Positions 8,833 to 40,822 of a stretch of DNA of 64,000 bases are shown in pieces. The stretch is from an uncultured Anaerolineales bacterium. GTDB lineage: Bacteria; Chloroflexota; Anaerolineae; B4-G1; SLSP01. The DNA is taken from assembly GCA_964504195.1 (NCBI GenBank), contig CAZDDI010000010.1:22956-86955 (forward strand). Direction: 5' to 3'. How positions within the stretch are numbered: position 1 is the first letter of the stretch; each line of letters begins with the position of its first letter. A program made the translations under genes and the position numbers. Below the pieces are notes generated by a model, which worked only from the letters and a program-made list of their open reading frames with translations, was not told where the DNA came from and searched no databases.

Positions 8833-9064
8833 ACAAGCAATTGCTCGCTGGTGCTTAGGCAGTTCCAGGATTTAAATCGTCCCAAAATCACCGGAATTCG
8901 TAGGGGAACAAGCAGTTTTTGGGATGATTATTTTCCTGGAATCGCCTTATCTTCAGTGACACTTATTTTGCGCCGCCTAACGCCAAATTTCATCGGGCGA
9001 AAAAGGCGAGCGCAGCTGAACACGGGGGAAGAGCAAGCCATTGTTGGGCATAATTCTCGTGAGA

Positions 9065-21523: not shown

Positions 21524-21596
21524 CAGGCGAGGCAGGAATCGAACCCGCAACCTACGGTTTTGGAGACCGTTGCTCTGCCAGTTGAGCTACTCGCCT
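21524..21596 (-). tRNA. tRNA-Trp (anticodon CCA).
   Basis: The minus-strand sequence AGGCGAGTAGCTCAACTGGCAGAGCAACGGTCTCCAAAACCGTAGGTTGCGGGTTCGATTCCTGCCTCGCCTG folds as a cloverleaf with anticodon loop CTCCAAA. Confidence 0.85.
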
Positions 21597-21605
21597 GCGT
21601 TATCC

Positions 21606-21773
21606 TTATTTGGTTTCCCGGTGCATCGTGTGCTTACGACAGCGCGGACAATACTTATTTAATTCCATGCGCGAGGGATCGTTACGCCGATTTTTCTCGC
21701 TCGTGTAACTCTGCTCTTTACAGTCGGTGCAGGCCAGGGTAATGGTTAACCGAATCGCCTTTTTCTTTGCCAT
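21606..21773 (-). CDS. rpmG: 50S ribosomal protein L33 (55 aa). It is below the ORF-track length cutoff.
   Basis: Minus-strand translation [55 protein letters not shown], an L33 zinc-ribbon (CxxC...CxxC) signature. Confidence 0.85.
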
Positions 21774-21825
21774 TGGATTGCCTCTTATTTCTTTATCACA
21801 AATTACGAAGGGTGAGCCTTCCTCA

Positions 21826-21898
21826 AGCCCATGCTCGGATTCGAACCGAGGACCCCTTTCTTACCAAGAAAGTGCTCTACCTACTGAGCTACATGGGC
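21826..21898 (-). tRNA. tRNA-Thr (anticodon GGT).
   Basis: GCCCATGTAGCTCAGTAGGTAGAGCACTTTCTTGGTAAGAAAGGGGTCCTCGGTTCGAATCCGAGCATGGGCT. The anticodon loop is TTGGTAA. Confidence 0.85.
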
Positions 21899-21925
21899 GC
21901 ACATCTCACGCTTACATAAAAAAGG

Positions 21926-22007
21926 TGGGCAGAGGCGGATTCGAACCACCGAAGGCTTAGCCAGCTGATTTACAGTCAGCCCCCTTTGGCCGCTTGGGTA
22001 TCTGCCC
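21926..22007 (-). tRNA. tRNA-Tyr (anticodon GTA) with a long variable arm.
   Basis: GGGCAGATACCCAAGCGGCCAAAGGGGGCTGACTGTAAATCAGCTGGCTAAGCCTTCGGTGGTTCGAATCCGCCTCTGCCCA. The anticodon loop is CTGTAAA. The D-arm is similar to E. coli tRNA-Tyr. Confidence 0.8.
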
Positions 22008-22011
22008 AGAA

Positions 22012-22084
22012 AGCCGACGGTGGGAATTGAACCCACAACCCTCCGCTTACAAGGCGGATGCTCCGCCGTTTGAGCTACGTCGGC
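22012..22084 (-). tRNA. tRNA-Thr (anticodon TGT).
   Basis: GCCGACGTAGCTCAAACGGCGGAGCATCCGCCTTGTAAGCGGAGGGTTGTGGGTTCAATTCCCACCGTCGGCT. The anticodon loop is CTTGTAA. Confidence 0.85.
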
Positions 22085-24289: not shown

Positions 24290-27200
24290 ATGATCCAAAT
24301 AAGCGCTTACTCAAAAAAATTCCCCATTATTATACTCGCCTTGATTTTGGGAGCTTTCTTACTGGCCTTGCCGCTACTTCTGATACAACCAGCCCAAAGT
24401 GCCGCGCCCATTGATACGTTACCCCATCCTGAATCCCAGAGCACCTGGCTAATCCTTGATAAAACAGGGCCAGACACCACTTACGCCGGAGATCCGGTGC
24501 GTTACACAATCCGATTGACCAACACTTCAGACAGTGAGTTGACCAACGTGGTGTTGACCGATACCTGGACAACCCGTATCCCGTCGGCACAGGATAGGGA
24601 AGCGACGTGGTTACGGGGTATTCTAGCGCTCTATAACGGTGATTACACGGTCAATCCACCTGACGCAGTGAACTATCACACCTATGGTTCCTATGTAAAC
24701 TTGCGTAAGGGAGAAGCTTACTGGCATCTCAACCCAATTCCTGCCGGGCAATCCGTGGAAATTGTGTTGACAATGACTACCCCAATCACACTTCAACCAG
24801 CTTTGAACGGGCATCTCCCGTGGGGGCGTGTAGGGCCGTCGAATGTGGAAAATTCCATCGTAGCGGGAGCACCAGGCCGTGGGAATGTTGAAGGTCCGGT
24901 TGTTACTTCATTGGTGGTAGGGCCATTACTGCAACTGACCAAAACCGCCGTAGGCGAAGCAGCACCGACCGGGCAAACCCGGGTTGGCCGGCTCGTGACC
25001 TATACTATCCAGATCCAAAATGTCACGGCTGAAGGTAGTTTTCAACGCCCTGATGCCGTAGCAGCTCAAAACCTCGTGGTTTGGGATGAAATCCCTATTC
25101 AGCTGCAGGGAACAACTTACCTAACCTATAGCGCCAGTCAGCCGGGCGTGGTAATACATTATAATACAACCGGATACACGCTGACCTGGACTTTCCCGGA
25201 GAGTTTCGCGCTGCAACCAGGAGAAAACACCCATGTGTATTTCACCGCTCGCGTGCCGGCAGGTACAGCTTATAATCCCACCACCAATTTGATTAATGCT
25301 AAAAACAAATTGTTAGCAATTGCTGATACCATGCTAAAATCAGCTAACTTGGCATCCGATTTGAGATCGCGGGTACTTAGTCCCTTTGATAAGACAGTGG
25401 CTGCGTCCACGCCACCCGCACAAGCGAATTACACCTATCCCAACCGCATCGTCACCTACACGGTCACTATCTATAACCCTCTGCAAATTGACATCCATGA
25501 TATGGTGTTTACAGATACGCTCAATATTGTCTCTGGAGCAACCTACGCAAGTATGGTACAAGGCCCAGCCCCAGTCTCTGGTGGCAGTAGCCCGCGGTGG
25601 GAGGGTTTATCGTTACCGGCCAATGGAGCAATCACTTTGATCTTTCGAGCTTTCATCCCACCGGATGTACCACTAGGGCCGCTCGGAACCACTTGTCGTA
25701 ATGCGAGTTATTTCAATGGCGTAATGGCCGCACATCCGGCTTTCCCGGTCGTCTACGTTGGGCATGATAATAACGCCTTAGCACGTTTATATGTCGTACC
25801 GCAATTGCAAATGTCCAAAACAGTTACCCCGACTACACAAATCCCCGGTGAATCGGTGGTTTACACCATTCAGTTACAAAATGTGGGCGATACTGACATT
25901 CCAACGCCCCTTATCATCACCGACACCCTGCCCCTATTTTTCACCTATGAACACATGGTCTCAACAGCTCCACCTGGCGAACCTGCTGTAAACGATAATG
26001 TCCTAACCTGGAATGATGTGCCGGGGATTCCGGCGGGACAATCTATCTCTTTCTCATTTAGTGCCATAACTGGAGGCCTCTCCGGGGTTGGTTATAAGAA
26101 TGTTGTTTCCGGCTACAATGCAGAAACCTCAGTGTGTACTATTTCTAGCGCCGAAGTCAAACTGGAAATACCCATCACCAAGGTCGTTTCTCCAACCACG
26201 GTTATCCAGGGAGAGATTGTGCAATATCAAGCCATGCTCCAAAACGCTTCGACGCAGGATTATGTAGTTACAGATTTCAAAGACATCTTGCCAACTGGTT
26301 TTGTGGCTGCCAGTAACCTGAACGATGTTTACGAAATCACCTACGATCCGCCGTTTACATTACCATCCAATCAAACCCTAACGGAACAATTTGATGTATT
26401 GGTGCGCGGCTCTGGTGTTGGCACTACATGGTGTAATGCTTCTTATCCCTCACGAGAAGTCTGGCAAGATAAAGGCAAGTTCGGATTCAACATACAGGAC
26501 ACGGGATGGGCCTATAACACCGTCAAACAAGCCATGGTTGAGGTTATTCCTCAAGGGTATCTGCTCCAAACGAGCCACCCACAGCCGGTGGCAGTGAATG
26601 ACACTCTCGTATTGACCCTGACTTTACAGGACAATCGGATTGATCCGGTTACTCCTTTGGCTGGCATTCACTTGAAATGGACCGTGCCTAGCTACGGCTC
26701 CGGCGATGCGCAAGAAATATTCACGCTTCTCGCCAGTTCCCTGCCCCCCGCTGAGTCATCCGCCCCACCTATCTATTACTGGGAGGGCCTTGAAATACCG
26801 CTTGCCGGCCAGCTACACATTATTTTGGAATTACGCGCACCACAACCCAACAACGATGATTGGGCACGCGACTACACCAGTACAGCTGAAGTGCTCACGC
26901 TTAATGATATGAATATCTGCATCCCCCGCTCTTCTTATAAAATCAAAGTCGTCCGCGGCATCGAAATTATCAAGACACCTTCACCCTCTCAAGTTGGGCC
27001 TTATGGCATTGTGCAATACACCTTGCGCGCCAACAATCTTACCGGCGCGCCGGTATCGAATGTCGTACTTACCGATGTATTGCCCCCGGGCTGGGAATTT
27101 ATAGCACTGGTGAGTGGGCCACCTCCTACTGCCACAACCCCTTTGGTCTGGCACTTGGATACTATTCCCGCCCTAAGCGAGATCGCCATCAAATTCACCG

Positions 27201-29002
27201 CACGCGCCTATACATCGGTAGGGGGAGAGATTAATAAAGTAGCAGGCCTTGCGCCCATCAATCTAGGGTATCATAAAAATTACACTAATACGGTGCGAGT
27301 ACAAGTGGTTTCAGGGGTAGGATTTTTCAAAACGGCCAACCCGAATGCGGTCAATGCGGGAGATTTAGTTAATTACACTATTACGCTTTACAATGGTGTT
27401 CCTAACAGTGAAAAGATGAGCAACATCATCATCACCGATACACTGCCGGCATATTTTACCTTTGTAAGAATGCTGGAAGGGCCGGCACCCAAACTACTGG
27501 CGGGGAATGAACTACGCTGGGACACGCTGACTACATTAAACAATGGGCAACGTCAGATATTACGCTTTGAAGTGCGGGTTGCCGAGGATGCGCGCACGGG
27601 CAACTATTACAATCAAATTATTGGCGAAGCGCGCAGTAGTAGCGGCGTCCCCCTCACGATTCCACCCTCTGGCCCAACTGCCCCTGTCTACGTTTCAGGA
27701 TTGCCTTCTATTCAGGTGAACAAACAAGTATCTCCTAATGCTGTACGTGCCGGTAATTCAGTGACCTATACCCTGACGCTCTACAATGAAGCAGAGGGAT
27801 CTTACGCCGTAGTAGTGACCGATACGTTACCCTACTCGCTCACCTTTGAAACAGCTTTAGGCTCCCCCCAGCCTACCGTCATTCCCGGGCCACGCGAGCG
27901 CGTGGTCTGGTCTGGCTTCGACTTGGCACCTGGTGAAACGCGGACGTTGACCTTCCGTGCCAGCGTAGACCGGCGAACCCCCAATGATGTTTACTGTAAC
28001 GATGTGCAGGTCAAAATGGGCGAATGGATTCTGCCGCCACACCTGGGATTGGCCTGTTTGAACGTTTCAGCTATCCCACGGGTGGATGCACAAATCAGTA
28101 AAGATGATGGGGTCACGCAGGTGGCAGCCGGGGATAGACTGACCTATACCATCCGCTATACCAACAGTATAGACTCCGAAGCTGCACTTTATAACGTAGT
28201 CCTCACCGAGACCATTGCCCCGCTTGCTTATCTCACTGTTTTGGAACACCCGAACTGGTTGCCGCTGGGGGAAGGGCGTTACCGCCTGGAAGTGAGCGAG
28301 CCGCTGTCACCTGGAGTTTCCGGAGAAGTGCTATTTGTGGTAGATCTACAACAAAGCGTCCCGCTGACCGAGGTACTGTCAGTGCATAATCGTGTTGAAA
28401 TCGGTTATACGACGCTAGAAGAGACAGTAGAGGCCACTCCGGATGACAACATTGCCGAAGACATCAATCTCTGGCAAGGGCCGGATATCATCATTACCAA
28501 CTTATGGTTTGAGCCAGCTAATCCCCTAATCGGAGAGCCATTGGCAGTTCACATTGAATTGACCAATCAGGGTACTTCGAATATAGACCGTCGTTATGAT
28601 GGAAGCACCGACCCCGGCTGGTGGCTCTTCGTCACAGAGCTGTACTTGAAGAACACTTCTTTTGTCCCGGCTGGCCCGCCGACAGGGGTCTTTGATCATA
28701 TCGGGGGGTATTGTCCCGATGCAGCTTGTTCCGCAACTCGAGGTGAATACCTGGTATGGCCTAACACCCTCGCGGCTGGTGAATCGCGCCAGTTCACATT
28801 CAACATTACTGCCCCAAACGCAGGAGTTTATAGCGTATACGTTCAAGCCGATGTTACTTGGCTTAATTGGCGAGGCGGAAAGGACTATGGGTTAATCCTA
28901 GAAGCCATCGAGGACAATAATATTTACAGGGGATCTGACTTGGTCATTTCAGGATCTGTTATAGGGCGTAAGGTTTACTTACCACTCATTTTACGCCATT
29001 GA
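24290..29002 (+). CDS. Giant (1570 aa) secreted/cell-surface protein with many DUF11 (conserved repeat domain) repeats.
   Basis: Signal peptide or transmembrane N-terminus. Recurrent DUF11 hallmarks include VVLTDTWTTRIP, FTDTLNIV, IITDTLPLFFTYEHM, VLTDVLPPGWEF, IITDTLPAYFTFVRM and VVTDTLPYSLTFE. GC content is lower than in flanking DNA. Confidence 0.8.
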   Translation: MIQISAYSKKFPIIILALILGAFLLALPLLLIQPAQSAAPIDTLPHPESQSTWLILDKTGPDTTYAGDPVRYTIRLTNTSDSELTNVVLTDTWTTRIPSAQDREATWLRGILALYNGDYTVNPPDAVNYHTYGSYVNLRKGEAYWHLNPIPAGQSVEIVLTMTTPITLQPALNGHLPWGRVGPSNVENSIVAGAPGRGNVEGPVVTSLVVGPLLQLTKTAVGEAAPTGQTRVGRLVTYTIQIQNVTAEGSFQRPDAVAAQNLVVWDEIPIQLQGTTYLTYSASQPGVVIHYNTTGYTLTWTFPESFALQPGENTHVYFTARVPAGTAYNPTTNLINAKNKLLAIADTMLKSANLASDLRSRVLSPFDKTVAASTPPAQANYTYPNRIVTYTVTIYNPLQIDIHDMVFTDTLNIVSGATYASMVQGPAPVSGGSSPRWEGLSLPANGAITLIFRAFIPPDVPLGPLGTTCRNASYFNGVMAAHPAFPVVYVGHDNNALARLYVVPQLQMSKTVTPTTQIPGESVVYTIQLQNVGDTDIPTPLIITDTLPLFFTYEHMVSTAPPGEPAVNDNVLTWNDVPGIPAGQSISFSFSAITGGLSGVGYKNVVSGYNAETSVCTISSAEVKLEIPITKVVSPTTVIQGEIVQYQAMLQNASTQDYVVTDFKDILPTGFVAASNLNDVYEITYDPPFTLPSNQTLTEQFDVLVRGSGVGTTWCNASYPSREVWQDKGKFGFNIQDTGWAYNTVKQAMVEVIPQGYLLQTSHPQPVAVNDTLVLTLTLQDNRIDPVTPLAGIHLKWTVPSYGSGDAQEIFTLLASSLPPAESSAPPIYYWEGLEIPLAGQLHIILELRAPQPNNDDWARDYTSTAEVLTLNDMNICIPRSSYKIKVVRGIEIIKTPSPSQVGPYGIVQYTLRANNLTGAPVSNVVLTDVLPPGWEFIALVSGPPPTATTPLVWHLDTIPALSEIAIKFTARAYTSVGGEINKVAGLAPINLGYHKNYTNTVRVQVVSGVGFFKTANPNAVNAGDLVNYTITLYNGVPNSEKMSNIIITDTLPAYFTFVRMLEGPAPKLLAGNELRWDTLTTLNNGQRQILRFEVRVAEDARTGNYYNQIIGEARSSSGVPLTIPPSGPTAPVYVSGLPSIQVNKQVSPNAVRAGNSVTYTLTLYNEAEGSYAVVVTDTLPYSLTFETALGSPQPTVIPGPRERVVWSGFDLAPGETRTLTFRASVDRRTPNDVYCNDVQVKMGEWILPPHLGLACLNVSAIPRVDAQISKDDGVTQVAAGDRLTYTIRYTNSIDSEAALYNVVLTETIAPLAYLTVLEHPNWLPLGEGRYRLEVSEPLSPGVSGEVLFVVDLQQSVPLTEVLSVHNRVEIGYTTLEETVEATPDDNIAEDINLWQGPDIIITNLWFEPANPLIGEPLAVHIELTNQGTSNIDRRYDGSTDPGWWLFVTELYLKNTSFVPAGPPTGVFDHIGGYCPDAACSATRGEYLVWPNTLAAGESRQFTFNITAPNAGVYSVYVQADVTWLNWRGGKDYGLILEAIEDNNIYRGSDLVISGSVIGRKVYLPLILRH

Positions 29003-29027: not shown

Positions 29028-29573
29028 ATGAGTACAAAATTTAGGTTTTGCAGTTTAATATGCATTATATTAGCCGTAACCTTAATAATACTTACTACAC
29101 CCAGTGTTAGTAGCGTTATGGCACAAGACCCGCCAACAGATCCACCACCACCAACGGCCATACTGCCAACAGCCATACCACCAACAACCGTGCCGCCGAC
29201 AGAACCGCCCACACCGGTGCCGCCAACAGCCATACCACCGACAGCTGTGCCGCCAACAGCCGTGCCGCCAACAGCCGTACCGCCGACAGCCGTACCGCCG
29301 ACAGCCGTGCCACCGACAGCCGTGCCACCGACAGCCGTGCCACCGACAGCCGTGCCACCAACAGCCGTGCCGACCACGCCAACCGAATCACCACCACCAC
29401 CACCAGCGCCCGCTGAGCCTACTGCGCCGGCAATTGCCCCGCAAGCAGCCGAGAATCATCGCTTACCTCAAACCGGCCTGCTTGAGGGATTCACGGTGAT
29501 TGGATTGGGACTGGCAATTATCATGCTGGCATTTGCGACCATGCGTCGGCATCGCACAAACAGCGAACAGTAA
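29028..29573 (+). CDS. LPXTG-motif cell-wall-anchored Pro/Thr-rich repeat protein, a likely sortase substrate.
   Basis: Signal peptide, a (PTAVP)n linker, then LPQTG followed by a hydrophobic segment and the basic tail RRHRTNSEQ. Confidence 0.8.
   Translation: MSTKFRFCSLICIILAVTLIILTTPSVSSVMAQDPPTDPPPPTAILPTAIPPTTVPPTEPPTPVPPTAIPPTAVPPTAVPPTAVPPTAVPPTAVPPTAVPPTAVPPTAVPPTAVPTTPTESPPPPPAPAEPTAPAIAPQAAENHRLPQTGLLEGFTVIGLGLAIIMLAFATMRRHRTNSEQ
29150..29390. repeat. 15-bp tandem repeat array of about 12 units encoding (PTAVP)n within the LPXTG protein gene.
   Basis: Units such as ccgccgacagccgtg / ccaccgacagccgtg repeat. The protein segment is PTAIPPTAVPPTAVPPTAVPPTAV... Confidence 0.85.
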
Positions 29574-29745: not shown

Positions 29746-31290
29746 ATGACTACCTTCTTACGATTCTTGTTTTTGATAGGTTACGCCATCGGCGTATATT
29801 TTATCCACCGCTACCTGCGCGCCCACCCGCCCAAGTTCGATGGGGAATTTGTATTTCCAGAGTCACGCCCCTTCAAGGCGTCCTGGTATATGGGACTCCC
29901 CCTGCTCTGGCCGCTCCTGGCGCTATTCTGGCTAAATCAGCCCCCCACTTCCCCAGGACTGTTGATCTATTTATTTATCATCGTACCGCCGCTGGTCATC
30001 TTTTTGCCCTGGCTCTGGTATTGGGGCGTACGCCCGCCATTCGTTGTTTTGCTGTTTACCGCCCTGCTCCTGTTAGTGCTACCCTTATTGATAACTGCCA
30101 CCCTCTTTTTGATAGACGGTGTGCGCATCACTATCGGCGTGCTGCCGATGCTCTTCTTCATGCTCGCGCCGCCAGCCTTTATGCTGCTCTTGGTATACCT
30201 GTGGGGCCCGCAAATTCTACCGCTCAGCCCGGAAGAGCAGCGCGCGCACCGGGGCGATATCGCCAAACTTTTCGCGGCCTTCTGGACAACCTTCGCCAAG
30301 CCCTCTATCGTTGTTGTCAATGCGGAGGCTCAAACACGCGTCGCTGGCAACCCGTTCCTAGGTATCGCACCGGGGCTACTAGTAACGGAACCGGAAAACG
30401 CCGTGATTCTACGCGATGGCTCTAAAATCGCCGCAATCATGGATCCGGGCGTTCATTTTGTCGGCTACACCTCCGCGAATCTCGTGCATGAGGTACTAGA
30501 CCTGTTCAAACAATTCCGCTCGGAGCCGAAGGTGGAAGCCATCACCAAAGACGGTATCCATATTCACGTTCCTATCTCCTCAATTTTTTCTATTGGAGGT
30601 GTCCGTCCGCCAGAAAAGCCAGGCGAATCCTGGCGCTATCACAAGAGCGCCGCGTTCAAAGCCTTTATGGCGCAAGAAGTCAACCCTACCGGGCGCACCC
30701 CTCTCGACGCACATCAGGTACGCTCATGGAAGGACATTCCCTTGCAAACTGTGATCCCCTATCTAAAACAACGGATTGCCGGATATACGCTAGATGAATT
30801 ATACGGTGCCAAAGAACCTTCATCACCGAAACTATTGCGCATAGTATTGGGGCAGGAAATGCAGACCTACACAAAAGCTCAAACCACACGCAGCGGCATT
30901 GAGGTGAGCGGCGGTGGCATGGGTAACAAGGTCAGCCCAGTGGATCATAAGGTCGTCGAACAGCGCATGGACGCCTGGAAAGCCCGGAAGACACATGAGA
31001 GCCTCGTGCGGAAAGGACAAATAGAAGCCACCTATCTCACGCAGCTGGGACGCGTGCGCAGCAAAATGCTTGAGGAAATCCTACAACAAATCAAGAGACA
31101 TGCGCAAGAATTGGAAAATGTACCTACCGAAAAACGCGACAGTATGCTCAAGATGATGAGTGCCGTACGTTTAATAGAAACGCTTGACGCGATCGCTCGT
31201 GACCCAGCTGTAGAACCACTCTTACCAGAAACAGTAGCCCAACGGATGCTGGCCTTACGTAAACAACGCGAAGAAGGGGGTAAAGCATGA
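29746..31290 (+). CDS. SPFH/band-7 (flotillin-like) membrane protein, paralog 1.
   Basis: Polytopic N-terminus, then an SPFH-like core: AVILRDGSKIAAIMDPGVHFVGY...EAITKDGIHIHVPISSIF. The C-terminal region is helical. Confidence 0.6.
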   Translation: MTTFLRFLFLIGYAIGVYFIHRYLRAHPPKFDGEFVFPESRPFKASWYMGLPLLWPLLALFWLNQPPTSPGLLIYLFIIVPPLVIFLPWLWYWGVRPPFVVLLFTALLLLVLPLLITATLFLIDGVRITIGVLPMLFFMLAPPAFMLLLVYLWGPQILPLSPEEQRAHRGDIAKLFAAFWTTFAKPSIVVVNAEAQTRVAGNPFLGIAPGLLVTEPENAVILRDGSKIAAIMDPGVHFVGYTSANLVHEVLDLFKQFRSEPKVEAITKDGIHIHVPISSIFSIGGVRPPEKPGESWRYHKSAAFKAFMAQEVNPTGRTPLDAHQVRSWKDIPLQTVIPYLKQRIAGYTLDELYGAKEPSSPKLLRIVLGQEMQTYTKAQTTRSGIEVSGGGMGNKVSPVDHKVVEQRMDAWKARKTHESLVRKGQIEATYLTQLGRVRSKMLEEILQQIKRHAQELENVPTEKRDSMLKMMSAVRLIETLDAIARDPAVEPLLPETVAQRMLALRKQREEGGKA

Positions 31291-32714
31291 CCCGCACCAC
31301 TGACCGCCTTGACAATTTAACCCTCCCTTTGTTGATAGTAATAGTTGCCACATTAGTGTTTTCCGTGCTATATATTGTGGCGATGCCCGAATCACTAGAC
31401 GGTGTAAAACTAGCCCTAAGCCGCTATGGCGAAACACGCAACCCTATCACTTTGCTGATCACGCTAGGAATGGCCTTTTTGAACAGCAGAGCCTTCGCAT
31501 TTATGCTGGTTATGATCCTCGCCTGGTTCTCAGCGCATCTGTTACTAGGCCAATATCTGCAACAGCTTTATGCACTCACCTGGGAGGATACCTTGGGCGT
31601 GACCGAGGCAGCCGACAGAAACGCTGACTCACCAACGCGAGCGTCTGGCCTATTGTTTCGCATTCTCTACGGGCTGCCAGAGGAACCACCTTTTGCGCCA
31701 ATCCTTGGCGCACGCGAAGGGCAAGTAGACCCGGACGGGCCAGAAATTATGCGCAAGGTGGGCGGGCCAGGCTTCCTCAGCATAGGCCACGATACCGCCG
31801 TCGTCATCGCGCGCGGGGGTACAATTATTAACGTGCTAGGCCCTGGTTGGCATCGCGTCGGCCCCTTCGAGCGGATATGGGATGTAGTAGACTTACGCCC
31901 ACAACGCCGCAATCTACATGTAGAAACGCACTCGCGTGACGGCATCCCCATCTATTGCGATGCCGAAATTCTTTTCCGGCTCGACAACGGCGAAGAACCG
32001 CCCGAAGAAACAGAAACTTTCGACTATCCGTACCCCTTCACCGAGAAGGCTGCCGATAATGTGTTGAAAGTAACCGCCGGAAAAGTCGTGCTCAAACCGG
32101 GGGGCAAACGCTTCACCGATTGGAGCACACGCATGCCCAACGGCATCCTTGACGGGGTCATCCGCAACACCATTGAACAGTACCGACTGGATGAGTACCT
32201 CACCCCCGCCGATAACGGCGAACCGCTTTTTGCCAAGTTGGAAAGAGACATCGAAAAGCAAGTGCGCGAGGATGGCCTCAAGGCAGGGGCACGGGTATTA
32301 CGTGTCACGCTTGGGCCAATCCTCCCGATGGAAGAAGCGATCTCGCAACAATGGGTGGAATCCTGGCGTTCCGAGTGGGATATGGCTACGCACGAACTAG
32401 AAGCTGAAGCCAAAGCTCTGGGCACAGAGGCCATCAAGAAAGCCCGCGTTCTCGCACAAGCAGACCTGGTTACTACAATCATGGAAGGGTTGCGCGATTT
32501 CGATACGGTTGACCCCAACCTGCAAGAGACAATCATTATGATGCGCTTTATGGACGCAATGCGGTCGCTGGCAGAAACGGATCCGCTCGTGCGGGGGCTG
32601 ATGTTCAAAGAGGCTGAAGGCCTACAGCGCATCATCAAGACCATGACAGAGATTACGCAGCAGCCATCGCCCCCACCACAGCTGCAGCTGCCACCCACAA
32701 ATCCTGATCTGTAA
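31287..32714 (+). CDS. SPFH/band-7 (flotillin-like) membrane protein, paralog 2.
   Basis: AVVIARGGTIINVLGPGWHRVGPFERIWDVVDLRPQRRNLHVETHSRDGIPIYCDAEILFRL is an SPFH core. There is a flotillin-like EA-rich coiled coil, ELEAEAKALGTEAIKKARVLAQADL. A 4-nt overlap (ATGA) joins it to paralog 1. Confidence 0.65.
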   Translation: MTRTTDRLDNLTLPLLIVIVATLVFSVLYIVAMPESLDGVKLALSRYGETRNPITLLITLGMAFLNSRAFAFMLVMILAWFSAHLLLGQYLQQLYALTWEDTLGVTEAADRNADSPTRASGLLFRILYGLPEEPPFAPILGAREGQVDPDGPEIMRKVGGPGFLSIGHDTAVVIARGGTIINVLGPGWHRVGPFERIWDVVDLRPQRRNLHVETHSRDGIPIYCDAEILFRLDNGEEPPEETETFDYPYPFTEKAADNVLKVTAGKVVLKPGGKRFTDWSTRMPNGILDGVIRNTIEQYRLDEYLTPADNGEPLFAKLERDIEKQVREDGLKAGARVLRVTLGPILPMEEAISQQWVESWRSEWDMATHELEAEAKALGTEAIKKARVLAQADLVTTIMEGLRDFDTVDPNLQETIIMMRFMDAMRSLAETDPLVRGLMFKEAEGLQRIIKTMTEITQQPSPPPQLQLPPTNPDL

Positions 32715-32764
32715 AATTTATCGGCAAGTGCATTGCACCACAGGGACTCACATGGAGGGTCAAT

Positions 32765-33631
32765 ATGAGCCGTATCTTCATCCCGGAAGAGCTCACGCTA
32801 TTGCATCTAGTCGCCTTTCCTGACGCAGTAACTCTTCCCTTCCGCACTCTGCACGAAGCGCTACACATAGAGATGCTGCGCGGCGATAGCCGAGAGGCTA
32901 AAAAGGCCGCTGAAAACCTGGAACGCATCGCCAGCAGCGCAGGGGAAACGTACATCGCGGCCCTGGCACACCTCTATCTCGCCGATGTCACGCGCCACCA
33001 ACATACCACTGCGCTTAGAACGCTCACCCGCGCCGTGACCAGCCTTCACAATGAAAGCCGTGCCATCGCCCGCTATAATGAAGCCCTGGGCTACTACCTG
33101 CAAGGTATCATTCATTGCGCCAGAGACAAAGACGCTGAGGTAAGCCAGTCTTTTGGACGTGCCACGCAATTGCTGGAACAAGCACGTCACCGAGAATCCT
33201 TTTTTGGCGCCCACCCGCGTAGCCCCGATATTGAAAAACTTATCCGCTGGATGACCGAGCTATTGATGCTAGGCATCAATACGCGCAATTTGAACATCGC
33301 GCCACTCTACGAACCAGCCGAGAATGGCACATTGCAATTCTGCGGCGCCACCGCCATTGACACCGGCGAAATCGAGCTACCTCGCTCCACCCTTCCCCCA
33401 CTTGAGGAAACCTACTTTGTGATCGAGTTGCCCCCCGCGCCCGCCAGTTCCAGCTTGGAAATCGCCGCTCCCAAACGGCGCTATTTAATCAAGCCTGTCT
33501 GGGGTGAAGACCCCCAAAGCGTCCCCAAACTGGATCAGTATGGGCGTTTCCGCCCTGGCGAACGCCGTAGCTTTGAGTTCGAGACTGATGACAGAATCAC
33601 GCTAGGAGACTTCGCCGGCATGATTCTGTAA
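32765..33631 (+). CDS. Hypothetical protein; helical N-terminal half and beta-rich C-terminal half.
   Basis: No motif recognised. The ORF has high coding potential and sits in the operon-like array. Confidence 0.5.
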   Translation: MSRIFIPEELTLLHLVAFPDAVTLPFRTLHEALHIEMLRGDSREAKKAAENLERIASSAGETYIAALAHLYLADVTRHQHTTALRTLTRAVTSLHNESRAIARYNEALGYYLQGIIHCARDKDAEVSQSFGRATQLLEQARHRESFFGAHPRSPDIEKLIRWMTELLMLGINTRNLNIAPLYEPAENGTLQFCGATAIDTGEIELPRSTLPPLEETYFVIELPPAPASSSLEIAAPKRRYLIKPVWGEDPQSVPKLDQYGRFRPGERRSFEFETDDRITLGDFAGMIL

Positions 33632-33638
33632 CGGAGGT

Positions 33639-34580
33639 ATGCAGATGAGCAAAAGCGAGCATCACGCCATCGTTATCGGCGCGGCAGGCTTTGATATCAA
33701 GGTCTGGCCGCAAACGCTGGCCGTCGAGCCGGGGCAATCCAACCCGGCGCACATCCAGTGGAGCGCCGGCGGTGTGGCCCGCAACATCGCTGAAAACCTC
33801 ACGCGGCTGGATACCGAAGTGCATCTCATCACCGCTGTGGGCAACGACCGCGCCGGTGAAGATTTGCTGGCCGAACTCGAGCAGTTGGATATTGACACGT
33901 CCGCCTCAGCAATCTGTGAAGACCAGCACACAGCGGCTTATGTAGCGCTCTACCAGGCCGACGGGCAGTTGCGCCTGGCCTTCGATGACATGGTGGTAGC
34001 CCGCGCCATCACGCCCAAGCATCTCATACGCAAGCGCAGCCTCTTCAAACAGGCTGACATCATCTGCATTGATGCCAACCTGACCGCCCGCGCGCTGGAG
34101 ACGATCTTCCGGCTGGCCCGCGAGTATCACGTCCCCGTGTGCGCCGATCCTACGGCGGCGCTACTCGCGCCGCGCCTGCACCCCTACATCAATGAGCTCG
34201 CCGCGCTCACGCCCAACCGGCTCGAGGCCGAAGCATTGTTGGGCGAGGCGCTACTCGATGAAGAAAGCCTGATGCGCGGCGCGCGCCGCCTGGTGCAGTT
34301 GGGCGCACAGCTGGCCGTCATCAACCTGGGGGCGCAAGGCTTGTGCTACGCCACCAGCGAGGAGAACGGACGTTTACCCGCGTTCAAAGTCGAGACGATA
34401 GACACCAGCGGCACCGGCGATGCGCTTACCGCTGCCATCGCCTACAGTCTCATGGAAGACCTCCAGCCAGCCGAAGCCGTGCGCCTGGGCCTCGCCGCCG
34501 CCGCCATGACCGTCTCTTGCAGCGGCAACGTTTGCCCCACGCTCAGCGTGGATGGCCTGTACGATTGGTTGATTGTGTAA
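33639..34580 (+). CDS. PfkB-family carbohydrate/nucleoside kinase (ribokinase / pseudouridine-kinase-like).
   Basis: N-terminal IGAAGFD and C-terminal DTSGTGDALTAAIA match the PfkB DTxGAGD signature. Confidence 0.75.
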   Translation: MQMSKSEHHAIVIGAAGFDIKVWPQTLAVEPGQSNPAHIQWSAGGVARNIAENLTRLDTEVHLITAVGNDRAGEDLLAELEQLDIDTSASAICEDQHTAAYVALYQADGQLRLAFDDMVVARAITPKHLIRKRSLFKQADIICIDANLTARALETIFRLAREYHVPVCADPTAALLAPRLHPYINELAALTPNRLEAEALLGEALLDEESLMRGARRLVQLGAQLAVINLGAQGLCYATSEENGRLPAFKVETIDTSGTGDALTAAIAYSLMEDLQPAEAVRLGLAAAAMTVSCSGNVCPTLSVDGLYDWLIV

Positions 34581-34658
34581 AAGCAACCAATCATACAGGC
34601 TACAAGCCTCAGCCAATGGAGGCTGTACGCATCCATACCTTGTTGCCCCATAACTTTT

Positions 34659-37600
34659 ATGTTCCAACACCTGACCTTCCGCCATCCCTTCCGCAAATAC
34701 CAGCGCCTCATCCTCGCCCAGGTTGAATCGGGCCAGGGCGATCAGCGCTACCACCTCGTCGCGCCGCCCGGCGCCGGCAAAACCATCGTGGGGCTGGAGC
34801 TCATCCGCTACTTCAACGCGCCCGCGGTGATTTTCGCGCCCACCACCACGATTCAGGAGCAGTGGCGCGACAAGCTCGCGTTGTTTCTCCCCGCCGACGC
34901 GCCTCTGGAAGACCTGCACACGCTCGTCAGCCTCGATCCGGCCCGCACGGCCCCCATCAACATCTTCACCTACCAGCTCATCTCCACGCCCGGCGAATCG
35001 CAAACGCACGTTGAAGCGATGGCGCGGCAGCGGTGGATCGAAGACCTGCTCCACGAGGGCAAGGCGCGCGAGCCTGCCGACGCCGAGGCGCGGCTGCTCA
35101 CGCTGGCGCAGAACAACCCGGCAGAATACCGGCGCGAGCTCGCCCGCCGCTACCAGCGCATCAAGCGCGAGCTGCTCCGCAGCGGCGAGGCCGAAATCCT
35201 GCCGTTCCTCCATCCCAACGCCCGCCAGCTCATTGAGACGCTGGTGGAGTACGGCGTGCGCACCATCGTGCTGGATGAGTGCCATCACCTGCTCGATTAT
35301 TGGGCCATCGTGCTGCGCTACTTCATCGCCCGCATCGCCGACCCGCGCATCATCGGCCTCACCGCCACGCTCCCCAGCCCCGAAGACGACATCGCTTATG
35401 AGAACTACACGGAGCTGCTGGGGGAGGTGGATTTTGAGATTCCCACGCCCGCAGTGGTCAAAGAGGGCGATCTGGCCCCCTACCGCGATTTGGTGTATTT
35501 TGTCGAACCCAGCCCGCGCGAGATGGCGTACCTCAAGAACATCCAGCAGGCATTCGAGGCCGCCATCAGCGGGCTAACGCGCAGCGCTGCCTTTCGCGGC
35601 TGGGTGATCCAGGCCGTGTTGCAGCCCACCACCGCCACCGGGACGCCGCTCACTTGGGAGCAGTTCGTGCGCCAGCACCCGCTTTTCTCGCTGGCCGGGC
35701 TGCGCTTCCTGCTGCACATTGCCTATCCCCTGCCGCCGGACTTGCCCCTGCCCGTCGAGGCCGAGCAGCGCATCACGCTCGACGATTGGGCCATCCTGCT
35801 GGAGCGCTACGGACTGGACGTGCTCGCGCTCAGCCCGGAGCCGCAGGATCACGTTTTGCTCAAGCGGCTGCGGCAAATCCTGTTCCCGTTCGGCTTCACC
35901 CTCACCGAGCGCGGCCTGCGCCAGAGCCGCTCCCCCGGTGACCTCATCCTCACCTTCTCCGAATCCAAAGACGAAGCGGTGGCGCACATCCTCAGCCTGG
36001 AGGCCGAGGCGCTCGGCCAGCAGTTGCGGGCCGTCGTTGTGAGCGATTTTGAGCAGATGAGCAGCAGCGTCCGCCGCGCCGGGGACGTGCTGGATCGGGA
36101 TGCGGGCAGTGCGGTGCGCGTCTTCTACCACCTGGTACGCCACCCACAGACGGGCAGGCTCGAGCCGCTGCTGGTGACGGGGCGCACGTTTTTAATGGAT
36201 GCCGACATCGGGGCCGAAGTCATTGCGCGGTGCAACGCCGCATTAGAAGCGGAGGGGGCGCGGGCGACGTGCCGCGCAGTCCCCACCGCCATGCAGGGCG
36301 TGCTGGAAGTGGTGGGCGAAGGCCCTGATTGGGGATCGCGCACCTATGTGCGCCTGGCGACCCGGCTCTTCGAGGACGGCCTCACGCGCTGCCTGGTGGG
36401 CACGCGCGGCATCTTCGGCGAGGGGTGGGACTCGCTGAGCCTCAACACGCTCATTGACCTGACCAGCGTGACCACGAGCACCTCGGTGCAACAGTTGCGC
36501 GGGCGCAGCATCCGGCTCGATCCGCGCTGCCCGCGCAAGGTGGCGCACAACTGGGACGTGATTTGCGTCGCCAAGCACTTCGAGCGCGGCGATCTCGATC
36601 TGCGGCGGTTGGATACACGCCACGGGCGCTATTGGGGCATCGTGCCGCTTTCCCGCCGCGAGGCGCTGGTGCGCGACGCGCAGAGCGTCATCGCTGGCGA
36701 CCTGCTGGCGGGCGAACTGCGCGGGCAGATCGTCAAAGGCCTCAATCACCTCAGCCCGGAGTTGGCTTACCAGCTGGCGACGCGCGGCTTTAAGCACGCA
36801 GACTACCCCGGCATCACCCGCCAGATGCTCGGCCAGATCAAGCAGCGCGATAAGATGTACGACTTGTGGGACATCGGCGGGGAGTACAGCAACTTCGCCT
36901 ACAAAGCCACCCGGCTCGACGCCACCGATCTCAAAATCCGCACGGTGTTTACCGTGCAGCACACGCTCAAGCGGATGCTGCGCGCGTTCCTCGCCTCGCT
37001 GGTATCAGGCTTGCTGATGACACTCTGGCTCGCCGCGTATATCTTCCTGCAAGGCTTCACCTCCGGCGATGAGGAATTCCTGGGGGTGATGTGCGGCTGC
37101 TCCGGCGGCATCCTGGCGCTGGGCCTGCTGTTGACCCTGGCATTCAACACGCTCTCGGCCTACCGGCTGGGCAAAACCTTGCTGGTGGAGCAGCCCACCG
37201 ATGGCATCCTTCTGGACATGGGGCGCGCGCTGCTCGCCACGCTCAAGGAGCTGGGACTGGTGAGCCGCCACCTCCAGCCGGACTACATCCGCGTGGTGGA
37301 GCATCCCGATAACAGCTACGATGTCCTGCTGGATTACGCCTCGCCAGAAGAGGCCGCGCTGTTCATCGAGACCTATCAGGAACTCTTCGAGCCGGTACGC
37401 GACCAGCGGTATCTCATCTACCGCGACGACACGCGGCTGCCGAGCCTGCCATTGCGCCCGCTGTGGTACTTCCTGCGGCGGTTGCTCCACGATGAGGGCC
37501 TCTACAAGCCCGCTTACCATCCCGTCCCCAAGCTGCTCGCCAGCCGCAAAGACCGCGCCGAAGCCTTCGCCCACGCCTGGCAGAAATACGTCGGCGGCGG

Positions 37601-37706
37601 TTATCTCATCTACACCCGTAGCGACGCAGGCCGCCGCATCCTCCTCGAAGCCCGCGCCCAGCAACGCCCCAAAGTTAAGGGCCTGGCGTTTGAGCTGTGG
37701 CGGTGA
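34659..37706 (+). CDS. SF2 (DEAD/DEAH, ResIII-like) helicase-family protein, 1015 aa, with C-terminal transmembrane segments.
   Basis: Walker A LVAPPGAGKTIVG. DExH box VLDECHHLL. Motif VI-like QQLRGRSIRL. Two hydrophobic helices near residues 775-830, LLMTLWLAAYIFL and ILALGLLLTLAF. Long antisense ORFs in this 70%-GC stretch are artefacts. Confidence 0.75.
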   Translation: MFQHLTFRHPFRKYQRLILAQVESGQGDQRYHLVAPPGAGKTIVGLELIRYFNAPAVIFAPTTTIQEQWRDKLALFLPADAPLEDLHTLVSLDPARTAPINIFTYQLISTPGESQTHVEAMARQRWIEDLLHEGKAREPADAEARLLTLAQNNPAEYRRELARRYQRIKRELLRSGEAEILPFLHPNARQLIETLVEYGVRTIVLDECHHLLDYWAIVLRYFIARIADPRIIGLTATLPSPEDDIAYENYTELLGEVDFEIPTPAVVKEGDLAPYRDLVYFVEPSPREMAYLKNIQQAFEAAISGLTRSAAFRGWVIQAVLQPTTATGTPLTWEQFVRQHPLFSLAGLRFLLHIAYPLPPDLPLPVEAEQRITLDDWAILLERYGLDVLALSPEPQDHVLLKRLRQILFPFGFTLTERGLRQSRSPGDLILTFSESKDEAVAHILSLEAEALGQQLRAVVVSDFEQMSSSVRRAGDVLDRDAGSAVRVFYHLVRHPQTGRLEPLLVTGRTFLMDADIGAEVIARCNAALEAEGARATCRAVPTAMQGVLEVVGEGPDWGSRTYVRLATRLFEDGLTRCLVGTRGIFGEGWDSLSLNTLIDLTSVTTSTSVQQLRGRSIRLDPRCPRKVAHNWDVICVAKHFERGDLDLRRLDTRHGRYWGIVPLSRREALVRDAQSVIAGDLLAGELRGQIVKGLNHLSPELAYQLATRGFKHADYPGITRQMLGQIKQRDKMYDLWDIGGEYSNFAYKATRLDATDLKIRTVFTVQHTLKRMLRAFLASLVSGLLMTLWLAAYIFLQGFTSGDEEFLGVMCGCSGGILALGLLLTLAFNTLSAYRLGKTLLVEQPTDGILLDMGRALLATLKELGLVSRHLQPDYIRVVEHPDNSYDVLLDYASPEEAALFIETYQELFEPVRDQRYLIYRDDTRLPSLPLRPLWYFLRRLLHDEGLYKPAYHPVPKLLASRKDRAEAFAHAWQKYVGGGYLIYTRSDAGRRILLEARAQQRPKVKGLAFELWR

Positions 37707-37996: not shown

Positions 37997-39658
37997 ATGG
38001 AAAAACTAAATATCATTCCCCTGGGTGGCCTGGGCGAAGTGGGCAAGAATATGATGGCCCTGGAATATGGTCGCAACATCCTCATCATTGATGTAGGCAT
38101 CATGTTCCCCGAAAGCGATATGCCGGGTGTGGATTATGTCATCCCCGATTACGCCTACTTGCGCGGCAAGGAAGACCGGATTCGCGGCATTGTCATCACG
38201 CACGGGCACGAAGATCACATCGGCGGGCTACCGCACTTTTTGCGCGAGTTCAACGCGCCCATTTACGCCACCAAACTCACGCGCGGCCTCATTGAAGTCA
38301 AACTGCGCCCAGCGGAGCACTTCAAGCAGGTCAAAATCAACACTTTTGCGCCGGGTGATGTGGTCAACGTTGGCCCGTTCATCGTGGAACCCTACCATGT
38401 ATGCCATAGCATCCCCGACGCGGTAGGGTTGGGAATTACCTCCCCAGTAGGGTTGGTAGTCCACAGCGGCGATTTCAAGCTCGACCAGACCCCGGTAGAC
38501 GGCTGGCCTACTGACATCGCCAAACTAGCCGAGTTCAACCGGCGCGGCGTGTTGGCGCTACTGTCCGACAGCACCAATTCCGACCACGCCGCTACCACGC
38601 CTTCCGAGCGCACACTTACGGTTGGGCTGGAGGCCGCATTCCGCAACGCCAAAGGGCGCATCATCGTGGCAACCTTCGCCTCGTTGATTTCGCGCATCCA
38701 GCAGGTGATGGACGTGGCACAGCAGTTCGGGCGCAAGGTAGCTGTGACCGGCACCACCATGCTCGACAATACCAAGATGGCGCGACGGTTAGGCTACCTC
38801 AACGTACCGGACGATCTACTGCTTTCATTACAAGATATCAACAAGCTGCCGCCGCATCAGGTCGCCATCATCAGCACAGGCGCGCAAGGTGAGCCGACTT
38901 CAATCATGGGGCGGCTAGCGATGGGTAGACATCCCTCGCTACGCATTACCCCCGGCGATACGGTGGTGCTTTCGTCGCACACCATTCCCGGCAACGAAGA
39001 GACCGTGCATCGCGTCATCAACCGGCTCTTCCAGAAGGGTGCGCATGTCTTGTACCATCCGCTTGCGCCAGTGCATGTCTCCGGTCATGCCGGGCAAGAA
39101 GAGCAGAAGATGCTAATGGGCATGTTACGCCCCAAGTTCTTCATCCCCATCCATGGCGAACTGCGTCACCTGCACCACCATGCACAACTGGCACAACAGG
39201 TAGGGATTCCCCATGAGAACATCGCGGTCGTGGAAAACGGCTACATCTTGCGCCTGTCGCAGGAAAAATTGGAGATTGGTGAACGCATCCCCGGGGGCTA
39301 TGTCTTTGTAGATGGGGCCTGGGTGGGCGATGCCGTCAGCCAAGAGGTCATCAGTGAGCGCGAATCATTGGCGAGCGCGGGCGTTTGCATGGTGACGCTA
39401 CGCTACGATCCGGCGCGCTCCGCGCTGGTAGGGCGGGTGCGCATAGCCTCGCATGGCTTCGCATCGTCGGATGTGACCGCCGCGTTACTGGAAAAAGCGC
39501 AGCCGCTCATCCGCCGCGCAGTTCACGCGATGCCACATAACACACCGGCTACCGATGTAGAAACCACTGTCAAGAAAAATCTTTCCGATTTCTTCTATCA
39601 ACAGGCAAAAAATCGCCCTGAAATTTTCGTGATAGCACTTCCCGAAAACCCAATGTAA
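37997..39658 (+). CDS. rnj: Ribonuclease J (metallo-beta-lactamase / beta-CASP).
   Basis: VITHGHEDHIGGLP matches the HxHxDH motif. Length and C-terminal domain match RNase J. Confidence 0.9.
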   Translation: MEKLNIIPLGGLGEVGKNMMALEYGRNILIIDVGIMFPESDMPGVDYVIPDYAYLRGKEDRIRGIVITHGHEDHIGGLPHFLREFNAPIYATKLTRGLIEVKLRPAEHFKQVKINTFAPGDVVNVGPFIVEPYHVCHSIPDAVGLGITSPVGLVVHSGDFKLDQTPVDGWPTDIAKLAEFNRRGVLALLSDSTNSDHAATTPSERTLTVGLEAAFRNAKGRIIVATFASLISRIQQVMDVAQQFGRKVAVTGTTMLDNTKMARRLGYLNVPDDLLLSLQDINKLPPHQVAIISTGAQGEPTSIMGRLAMGRHPSLRITPGDTVVLSSHTIPGNEETVHRVINRLFQKGAHVLYHPLAPVHVSGHAGQEEQKMLMGMLRPKFFIPIHGELRHLHHHAQLAQQVGIPHENIAVVENGYILRLSQEKLEIGERIPGGYVFVDGAWVGDAVSQEVISERESLASAGVCMVTLRYDPARSALVGRVRIASHGFASSDVTAALLEKAQPLIRRAVHAMPHNTPATDVETTVKKNLSDFFYQQAKNRPEIFVIALPENPM

Positions 39659-39664
39659 CCACGC

Positions 39665-40822
39665 ATGACCCATATTCTCATCGTGTATAAACAATTCCCT
39701 GGCCCTACGGTGAGTCACGCGGGGGGGGAATCCGTCTACAGGCTGATGCAGGCCCTCCACGCGCGCGGGCATACACTAACGCTGGTGGCACGCATCCACG
39801 AGACAGAACGCCCACAGTTACCAGCAGTCCAGACGCTTTGCGACCGCATCGTGACCGTGCCGCATCACCGCTCGCTGTCCGGCCCACGTCCGCTAGAGAT
39901 GGCGCGTAGCTATTGGCTACTGCGCCAGGCCACACGGCGAACGTTGCTTGAAACCCGACCCGATCTGCTCTATGTGGAATTTGCCCAAACCGGAGCCGTG
40001 CTACTGGGACTCAAAGGCGTCCCTACCGCCATCCGCGCGCATGACATCAACTGGTTCCTGATGGAGCAAGAAATCGCGCAGCACAGCGGCCTGGCACGCT
40101 GGCGTAGTCGGCTGTTGCGCACATTGTTCCTGTGGCTCGAACCCTGGCTCTACCGACAGTTCGATCTAGTCGCAGCTATCTCTGAAGGCGATCGCCGCCT
40201 GCTCGCGAAACGCTGTGCGCCTAAGCCCATCCTTCTGCTCCCCCTGGCACCGGCTTTTCAGCCTACCCCCGACATGGCCCCGGCTGTCGCCTCCGGCCCC
40301 AACGTACTCTTCGTAGGCGCGATGTCCCGTGCCTACAACGTCCAAGCCGTGACCTGGTTCCTTGATGACGTATGGCCCACGGTACTGGCGCAAGTTCCTG
40401 CCGCGCGTTGTTACATTGTCGGCGCGCAACCGCCGCCCAGCATCCAGTCCCGGCACGATGGCGCGCGGGTGTTCGTCACCGGTTTTGTGGACGACCTCGC
40501 CCCCTGGTACCAGGCCGCTGCTGTATGTGTGGCCCCCTTGTTGGTAGCGGGCGGATTGCTGCAAAAAGTGATTGATGCGCTAGGCATGGGCGTTCCGGTT
40601 GTAGCGACCAGTGCAAGCAATCACGGCGTCGGGGCGACGCCCGACGAGCACTTGTTGATCGCTGATGACCCGGCGACGTTTGCCGCAGCCGTAACGCGCC
40701 TGCTCAAAGACACGACGGCGCGGGAACAATTAGGCCGCGCCGGGCGTCTCTTTGTGGAAACACGCTATAATTTCGGCCCGGCAGTGGCGCGGTGGGAAGA
40801 AACCGTCAAGAATCTGGTATAA
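39665..40822 (+). CDS. GT4/GT1-family (GT-B fold) glycosyltransferase.
   Basis: The C-terminal domain pattern VTGFVDDLAPWYQAAAVCVAPLLVAGGLLQKVIDALGMGVPVVAT fits the EX7E-like region of GT4 enzymes. Confidence 0.7.
   Translation: MTHILIVYKQFPGPTVSHAGGESVYRLMQALHARGHTLTLVARIHETERPQLPAVQTLCDRIVTVPHHRSLSGPRPLEMARSYWLLRQATRRTLLETRPDLLYVEFAQTGAVLLGLKGVPTAIRAHDINWFLMEQEIAQHSGLARWRSRLLRTLFLWLEPWLYRQFDLVAAISEGDRRLLAKRCAPKPILLLPLAPAFQPTPDMAPAVASGPNVLFVGAMSRAYNVQAVTWFLDDVWPTVLAQVPAARCYIVGAQPPPSIQSRHDGARVFVTGFVDDLAPWYQAAAVCVAPLLVAGGLLQKVIDALGMGVPVVATSASNHGVGATPDEHLLIADDPATFAAAVTRLLKDTTAREQLGRAGRLFVETRYNFGPAVARWEETVKNLV

Follow-up and report, generated by a model that had tools for sequence, protein, structure and literature searches.

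A conserved SPFH-SPFH-X-PfkB operon of Anaerolineae and Thermoflexia, adjoined by a predicted membrane-held helicase from a separate family

Five consecutive genes coding on the same strand, with little space between them, for two SPFH proteins, a protein of no evident family (here called X), a PfkB-type kinase and a putatively membrane-anchored superfamily 2 (SF2) helicase raise the question of whether their products work together as a single membrane-associated system. The genes lie in a 64,000-nucleotide (nt) stretch of DNA from an uncultured Anaerolineales bacterium (contig CAZDDI010000010.1), the whole of which we call the window, and an earlier note made from its letters had proposed that they form one operon, possibly with an anti-phage or DNA-uptake role. 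We reproduced the positions, the spacing and the domain calls of the five co-directional open reading frames (ORFs), the gaps between which are, in order, -4, 50, 7 and 78 nt. Gene calls on five public metagenome contigs with an identical region agreed with ours except for the start of PfkB, which they place 6-21 nt later, giving a protein of 311 or 306 amino acids (aa). The first four genes will be referred to as the module, and the features on which the argument turns are these.

29746..31290, plus strand: SPFH1, first gene of the module, 514 aa, with about four N-terminal hydrophobic helices; its SPFH domain is divergent and its C-terminal region putatively helical
31287..32714, plus strand: SPFH2, 475 aa, in which a two-helix N-terminal hairpin precedes the SPFH domain; the first 4 nt of the gene are also the last 4 of SPFH1
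32765..33631, plus strand: X, 288 aa, soluble, with about 175 aa of probable N-terminal helical repeats resembling tetratricopeptide repeats (TPR) and a beta-rich C-terminal part of about 110 aa
33639..34580, plus strand: PfkB/ribokinase-family kinase, 313 aa in the longest ORF, closing gene of the conserved module
34659..37706, plus strand: putatively membrane-anchored XPB/Hef-like SF2 ATPase (the helicase), 1015 aa, adjoining the module but outside it
36990..37133, plus strand: two helices of the helicase (aa 778-796 and 807-825) predicted to span the membrane as a hairpin, from hydropathy, homologues and an AlphaFold2 model
37197..37703, plus strand: aa 847-1015 of the helicase, a conserved alpha/beta domain at its C-terminus without family assignment

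The answer that we favour, and hold with somewhat better than even confidence, is that an operon encoding a scaffold, an adaptor and a kinase stands beside an independent helicase. Its structural part, namely that the locus joins a conserved four-gene operon to a member of a separate helicase family, we consider about as probable. The evidence for the operon comes from a genome scan in which a profile of SPFH2 was run against one genome per GTDB species and returned 45 loci, whose content was counted by tblastn, ORF calling and hidden Markov models (HMMs) built from alignments made in this analysis. All 45 loci belong to Anaerolineae or Thermoflexia, and in every one with enough sequence SPFH1 stands directly in tandem upstream of SPFH2. 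X follows SPFH2 in 39 of the 43 informative loci, and a PfkB of orthologue level follows X in 31 of 41. The genes are closely packed as well, since the gap between SPFH2 and X is at most 16 nt, overlaps included, in 24 of 26 loci, and X and PfkB share a 4-nt overlap in 16 of 26 and overlap in all 26 under longest-ORF calls. This order is kept while sequence identity drops to about 28-30% for SPFH2 and about 17-25% for X, and the succession SPFH-SPFH-(~300 aa)-PfkB was also seen on three homologue contigs. A literature search returned no paper combining SPFH, PfkB and operon. We conclude that SPFH1-SPFH2-X-PfkB is an undescribed, lineage-specific conserved operon of Anaerolineae and Thermoflexia.

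Departures from this order are also found. PfkB accompanies SPFH pairs without X in three loci: in L048 (5790-12166) the order is SPFH-SPFH-PfkB-SPFH-SPFH, the five genes being no more than 5 nt apart or overlapping; in L051 (2780-10690) a second, inverted SPFH pair lies 3' of PfkB; and in L058 the order is SPFH-SPFH-PfkB-helicase. Two SPFH pairs placed around PfkB, without X, were noticed in some Anaerolineae and Thermoflexales genomes.

The helicase does not share the conservation of the module. It follows PfkB in one of the 45 species-representative module loci (L028), so the single operon of five genes proposed earlier stands for the first four, which recur as a packed co-directional unit, but not for the last; likewise, in the comparison with other genomes that the earlier note had called for, the four genes are syntenic across Anaerolineae and Thermoflexia while the helicase is nearly non-syntenic. 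In a further locus, L009, the helicase comes after PfkB with a methyltransferase and an SfiI-like endonuclease between them, and the PfkB-helicase junction therefore seems to tolerate insertions; the inserted genes, at L009:13275-15015, encode an N6/N4 DNA methyltransferase and an SfiI/BglI-like endonuclease and lie exactly between the two. We also inspected six helicase-anchored loci, for which homologues were picked solely for long contigs: five have unrelated neighbours with no SPFH or PfkB, and the sixth, L058, has SPFH-SPFH-PfkB upstream. The helicase family comprises at least 928 proteins, the best 120 of which are full length and 52-70% identical, and a tblastn search of plasmids and chromids found homologues over most of the query, at 25-31% identity, in three further lineages (Bacillota, Bacteroidota and Alphaproteobacteria). 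The hosts of these distant homologues are Paenibacillus cellulositrophicus, Chondrinema litorale and Tritonibacter mobilis, in which they reside on large non-mobilisable replicons, and in the two annotated records, those of Paenibacillus and Chondrinema, each stands alone as a gene among unrelated neighbours. Both of the latter (L062:6971-9793; L063:6983-9673) have a recognisable C-terminal domain with W-R at its end, and the Paenibacillus protein also keeps the hydrophobic hairpin. By far most lineages have lost the helicase from the module, which weighs against any obligatory functional link between the two, and we conclude that it belongs to a separate, larger, uncharacterised family that is present in several phyla and does not depend on the module.

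These data bear directly on the possibility that all five genes constitute a membrane system, perhaps for anti-phage defence or DNA uptake, in which the scaffold organises the tethered helicase. Some of them weigh against our separation of the helicase from the module. The five genes are co-directional, and a sequence scan of the 78 nt that separate PfkB from the helicase found neither a terminator-like nor a promoter-like site, so that in this genome module and helicase are probably transcribed together; with the same scan, shuffled sequence gave terminator-like sites no less often, and promoter-like sites modestly less often (a mean of 4.2 versus 9). Moreover, the order of the window recurs in L028, in L009 around the inserted restriction-modification pair and in L058 without X; on a neighbour-joining tree of PfkB the four loci with a linked helicase, the window included, occupy three branches, and the spacing from PfkB to the helicase is 5-78 nt in the window, L028 and L058. 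The three branches and the tight spacing mean that the adjacency may be ancestral, and a five-gene operon may have existed at first and usually been lost later. A working five-gene system is nonetheless largely refuted by the synteny sample, given the absence of the helicase from 44 of the 45 species-representative module loci and the absence of the module both from five of the six helicase-anchored loci and from the two annotated homologues in other phyla. A search of PADLOC-DB v2 left four of the five proteins without a match and gave no system-level match, the helicase alone drawing weak generic matches (typeIV_DinG, 23.7 bits; PbeA, 22.2 bits). Plasmid searches with SPFH2 and with X returned nothing, no integrase or transposase is listed among the annotated genes, which cover about 8-64 kb of the window, and the locus is part of the core chromosome, as judged from the ribosomal-protein operon, the tRNA cluster and the RNase J gene nearby. 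The anti-phage or DNA-uptake context put forward earlier thus found no support. Neither the module nor the helicase is a recognisable anti-phage system, the locus is no defence island, and a five-gene system appears very improbable.

Returning to the operon beside an independent helicase, we considered each of the module's products in turn. The Pfam model Band_7 matched SPFH2 with 45.4 bits, above its gathering score of 23.6, and SPFH1 with 20.3 bits, under that score. The two had been taken for paralogues, and they are indeed related, though distantly, with 20% identity over 283 aa (E = 3e-8). By Kyte-Doolittle hydropathy SPFH1 has four N-terminal hydrophobic segments and SPFH2 two, the two-segment hairpin of the latter being kept across its family, and since the number of N-terminal helices is even in each protein and neither has a signal peptide, both SPFH domains most likely face the cytoplasm. 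A word search of a 5.8-billion-protein index detected 30 homologues of SPFH2, all from Chloroflexota.

Two known arrangements invite comparison. Like HflK and HflC, the bacterial SPFH3a/b pair, SPFH1 and SPFH2 are tandem, translationally coupled paralogues, each with an N-terminal membrane anchor (predicted in the module), for which a hetero-oligomeric ring or cage would be expected. However, HflK and HflC have one transmembrane helix each and an extracytoplasmic SPFH domain, whereas the approximately four and two helices found here imply a cytoplasmic one; the partners in the module are, unlike theirs, a TPR-like protein and a kinase; and no FtsH is found among the annotated genes. The NCBIfam models of HflK and HflC matched neither protein, and an identity with this pair accordingly failed on family models, topology and FtsH alike. 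The stomatin or flotillin-NfeD operons, families SPFH1, 2 and 5 in the 2009 survey of prokaryotic SPFH operons by Hinderhofer et al. (PMC2636767), are similar in that an SPFH gene shares a conserved operon with the gene of a small partner protein specific to its family, but the module differs from them in having a soluble X without a match to NfeD, a second SPFH paralogue and an enzyme gene, and an identity with such operons was ruled out because the X family contains no match to NfeD. The same survey gives NfeD as the sole conserved partner and never mentions the word 'kinase'.

X, the third product, appears to combine a TPR-like N-terminal half with a beta-rich C-terminal half. The window copy has no Pfam match and in the search of its family reached only TPR_21, at E = 0.013, but 15 of the 33 members matched TPR_12, the best of them at E = 5.7e-7. 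In an alignment of these 33 members the N-terminal half is helical and conserved; the C-terminal half, which varies more, contains the motifs GD-LLVE, F-RR-DGRV-F and G-PR-LIR. X proteins amount to only 38 clusters among 1.84 billion representative proteins, nearly all of 300-330 aa, and two homologues were detectable in the 5.8-billion-protein index. An AlphaFold2 model, built on a two-sequence alignment, was poor, with a predicted local distance difference test score (pLDDT) of 50, and is all-helical over residues 9-172. NfeD matched neither X nor any of the 33 homologues at E up to 1, nor their C-terminal halves at E up to 10, and HMM searches of the PDB and Pfam with the C-terminal half of X were equally without a match. 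By eye, this half was likened to the LexA/S24 catalytic domain, an unproven lead: in a single, pre-chosen hhalign comparison with LexA, UmuD and lambda cI the expected motifs aligned, but weakly (P = 0.0085, probability 4.7%), and X lacks a Ser-Lys dyad in this weak register, neither of the two positions being conserved. One apparent fusion, the 715-aa protein P0176, in which X is joined after about residue 200 to a DDE_Tnp_1-associated domain, was rejected as a functional fusion; from its sequence it looks like a transposon insertion into an X gene.

The assignment of the fourth product to the PfkB family was confirmed by a PF00294 score of 166 bits in Pfam and by the catalytic aspartate of the GxGD motif. 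This motif, G-T-G-D here, aligns with G-A-G-D256 of E. coli pseudouridine kinase (EcPsuK) and is invariant in the family. EcPsuK is also the best match among solved structures (PsuK/YeiC, 7vkp, E = 5.8e-45), and we used its published substrate contacts (PMC9247573) to map the pocket. The ribose contacts are kept as Asp19, Gly45, Val46 and Asn49, and so are Ser34 (EcPsuK Ser30), Tyr101, Met118, Asn147 (EcPsuK Asn143) and the catalytic Asp, so that ribose-contacting residues, both of these named EcPsuK positions and the catalytic residue are common to the two enzymes. Two or three of the residues that contact the base, in contrast, are changed: EcPsuK Lys170 corresponds to Leu176 and Val166 to Thr172, both invariant in the family, and Ser167 corresponds to Ala173 in the window kinase. 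The pseudouridine-kinase equivalog of NCBIfam, moreover, scored 162 bits against a cut-off of 540, and no PsuG-type glycosidase is present among the annotated genes of the window. On the equivalog score, the base contacts and the pairing with PsuG, then, the kinase was rejected as PsuK proper. The kinases linked to the module make up a single orthologous group: a profile built partly from the same sequences that were then scored gave them 455-546 bits, and a second PfkB in L058 only 31.5. Their identity of 47-74% far exceeds that of SPFH2 or X. A metagenome scan with the PfkB protein alone gave no match. From these residues we infer an intact ribokinase-type enzyme whose pocket is related to, but distinct from, that of PsuK. 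Because the ribose-binding residues are kept and two or three of the base-contacting residues are replaced, the substrate is probably a ribofuranosyl, nucleoside-like compound, and maybe not pseudouridine.

How could these proteins act together? We propose that SPFH1 and SPFH2, made from overlapping genes, would form a hetero-oligomeric membrane scaffold like those of HflK/HflC and flotillins, and that X, as a soluble adaptor, would bind the kinase and tie it to this scaffold, a role suggested by the translational coupling of the X gene to the kinase gene in most lineages. The kinase would then phosphorylate its ribofuranosyl, nucleoside-like substrate at or near the membrane, and the helicase would act independently as a duplex translocase fixed to the membrane. 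To our knowledge, most bacterial SPFH proteins have no known client. An operon made of an SPFH pair, a small adaptor and a soluble kinase therefore offers a testable candidate for a scaffold with its client, with a make-up absent from the SPFH operon types compared above, and if the proposal is true, a scaffold recruiting a small-molecule kinase through a dedicated adaptor would represent a new kind of SPFH client. For a real physical coupling of the kinase to the SPFH scaffold our confidence is tentative and falls short of even.

Much of the pattern could also arise if the locus were a housekeeping superoperon, in which a membrane scaffold made of the SPFH pair and perhaps X, an ordinary cytoplasmic salvage kinase and a helicase of ordinary nucleic-acid function are co-transcribed and co-inherited but have no common function, as in the known case of the hfq-hflX-hflK-hflC superoperon of E. 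coli. Every module locus belongs to a single lineage at class level, where synteny extends in part to a larger block (DUF11, module, LCP, GT4, RNase J), so that some of the conservation may reflect inherited gene order and not selection. In the same block RNase J and GT4, which are functionally unrelated, lie just as close together, at 7 nt, which makes tight spacing weak evidence in this lineage. Neither PfkB, which 10 of 41 loci lack, nor X, which 4 of 43 lack, is obligatory, and the high conservation of PfkB relative to SPFH2 and X would be expected if metabolism constrained this enzyme separately. Neither gene fusions nor signs of co-evolution or interaction tie X or PfkB physically to the SPFH proteins, the sole apparent fusion of X being the transposase junction described above; the literature search found no paper with SPFH, PfkB and operon together; and the membrane topology that we assign is based on hydropathy. 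Two features of the module are nevertheless hard to reconcile with a mere superoperon. The 4-nt overlap of X and PfkB persists in 16 of 26 loci despite the low identity of X, about 20-25%, and PfkB stands beside SPFH pairs in the rearranged loci without X (L048, L051 and L058), which would not be expected if a single ancestral order had been passively inherited. We regard the superoperon as the main rival to a scaffold with an adaptor and a kinase, but as rather unlikely.

We then turned to the helicase itself. The SF2 motifs noted earlier were all found in the translation, with Walker A as APPGAGKT at 35-42, the DExH motif as DECHH at 206-210 and motif VI as QQLRGRSIR at 611-619; TAT was read at 235-237, and two RecA-like lobes are modelled, although Pfam detects ResIII and DEAD over residues 10-242 only. 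The AlphaFold2 model (mean pLDDT 86) has the two-lobe fold, its top structural matches are SF2 enzymes, and in fold comparison the core is nearer to the double-stranded DNA translocases XPB, Hef and Snf2 than to DEAD-box RNA helicases; the first RecA lobe contains a helical insertion of about 120 aa. Kyte-Doolittle hydropathy marks two hydrophobic helices, 778-796 and 807-825, with about 190 further residues C-terminal to the pair. At a threshold of 1.6 the pair is present in 83 of the 120 homologues and a single segment in 26 more, and the model draws the hairpin as two long helices, H763-800 and H805-843. The earlier claim of two C-terminal transmembrane helices thus stands as regards a conserved hydrophobic hairpin, seen in hydropathy and in the model, but not as regards its position, since the hairpin is internal and a domain of about 170 aa comes after it. 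Seven Lys and Arg residues flank the hairpin on its N-terminal side and none occurs in its 10-aa connecting loop, a bias that would place both large domains of the helicase in the cytoplasm. The C-terminal domain has many invariant residues in the family alignment and a pLDDT mostly of 80-95, and it gave no match in Pfam or NCBIfam. From the model and these features we predict that the helicase is an SF2 translocase resembling XPB and Hef, which the hairpin anchors in the membrane with both large domains cytoplasmic.

This likeness to XPB is one of fold only. The NCBIfam equivalog for XPB scored 40.1 bits against a cut-off of 610, over residues 11-126 only, and no Bax1-like neighbour was present in nine helicase or module neighbourhoods, so that the helicase was rejected as an XPB orthologue. 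Compared with archaeal XPB/XPBII, whose partner is Bax1, and with Hef/FANCM, the protein in the window is set apart by the helical insertion, the predicted transmembrane hairpin and the C-terminal domain. A literature search on membrane-anchored helicases found nothing relevant. The protein thus defines a large uncharacterised family, spread over at least four phyla, in which an XPB/Hef-like motor predicted to be inserted in the membrane is combined with a conserved C-terminal domain, and the question that this family raises is what role a duplex translocase fixed to the membrane would have.

Several genes around the helicase and its homologues act on RNA. In L006 (9450-10001) the stop codon of a KptA/Tpt1 gene, for an RNA 2'-phosphotransferase, overlaps the start of the helicase homologue, and in L008 (14600-20225) the helicase homologue is followed, after 1.5 kb, by an RNA-repair cassette, Ro(TROVE)-Hen1-Pnkp. 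Together with the RNase J gene of the window, which starts 290 nt 3' of the helicase on the same strand, such RNA-end-processing genes make an RNA theme possible. Flotillins have a precedent in this field: in H. pylori floA comes immediately 3' of rhpA, which encodes a DEAD-box helicase, and RNase J degradosome foci are favoured by flotillin, and in S. aureus FloA promotes the oligomerisation of RNase Y (PMC7492731). One could accordingly imagine an RNA-turnover platform in which the scaffold gathers the helicase and RNase J while the pseudouridine-kinase-like enzyme salvages modified nucleosides. The window resembles the rhpA-floA locus in that an SPFH gene adjoins a helicase gene and RNase J is involved. 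However, the H. pylori helicase is a soluble DEAD-box protein and its link was experimentally tested, whereas the window helicase is XPB-like and predicted to be membrane-inserted, with a core nearer to double-stranded DNA translocases than to DEAD-box RNA helicases. Its adjacency to SPFH genes and RNase J is also rare: the helicase is seldom linked to the module, and RNase J lies directly 3' of it in the window only, none being found in L009 or L028 (L058 lay outside the search). In L014 and L044 RNase J occurs with GT4 and LCP, but on the opposite strand and several kb away (the L024 locus ends after GT4). A platform of this kind is hardly to be expected on these data, and the fuller version of it, a membrane-compartmentalised one in Anaerolineae with the TPR-like adaptor as part of the scaffold, seems barely more probable. 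The preferred reading remains the operon with scaffold, adaptor and kinase beside an independent helicase.

The surroundings of these genes in the window are as follows. Upstream of the module lies a secE-nusG-rplKAJL ribosomal-protein block with its L10 leader, plus four tRNAs, and an Rfam search upstream of the module found no riboswitch or leader; RNase J and its neighbours follow the helicase.

18881-19031, minus strand: L10 leader RNA, beside the secE-nusG-rplKAJL block
21524-22084, minus strand: four tRNA genes, beside the same block
37997-40822: RNase J (on the strand of the helicase) and the GT4 glycosyltransferase, with two LCP genes next

Upstream of the module, window positions 24290-29002 encode a 1570-aa surface protein with DUF11/CLIPPER repeats. 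Homologues of this giant protein occupy the same position in L019, L028, L029, L032 and L043, a syntenic block that is therefore larger than the four genes. Between this gene and SPFH1, at 29028-29573, there is an ORF of 181 aa (171 aa in some calls) with one hydrophobic helix at each end, which has no family match and for which tblastn against related loci found no homologue. The G+C content of 2-kb windows across positions 1-64000 ranges from 0.45 to 0.65 (compare, for example, 8001-10000 with 34001-36000), and it is about 0.53-0.56 in SPFH1, SPFH2 and X and about 0.63-0.65 in PfkB and the helicase. Farther downstream, positions 54157-55260 encode a 367-aa protein with baeRF_family10 (bacterial eRF1-like) and Host_attach domains, whose gene lies directly 3' of those for a GerE-type response regulator and a DegS-like histidine kinase.

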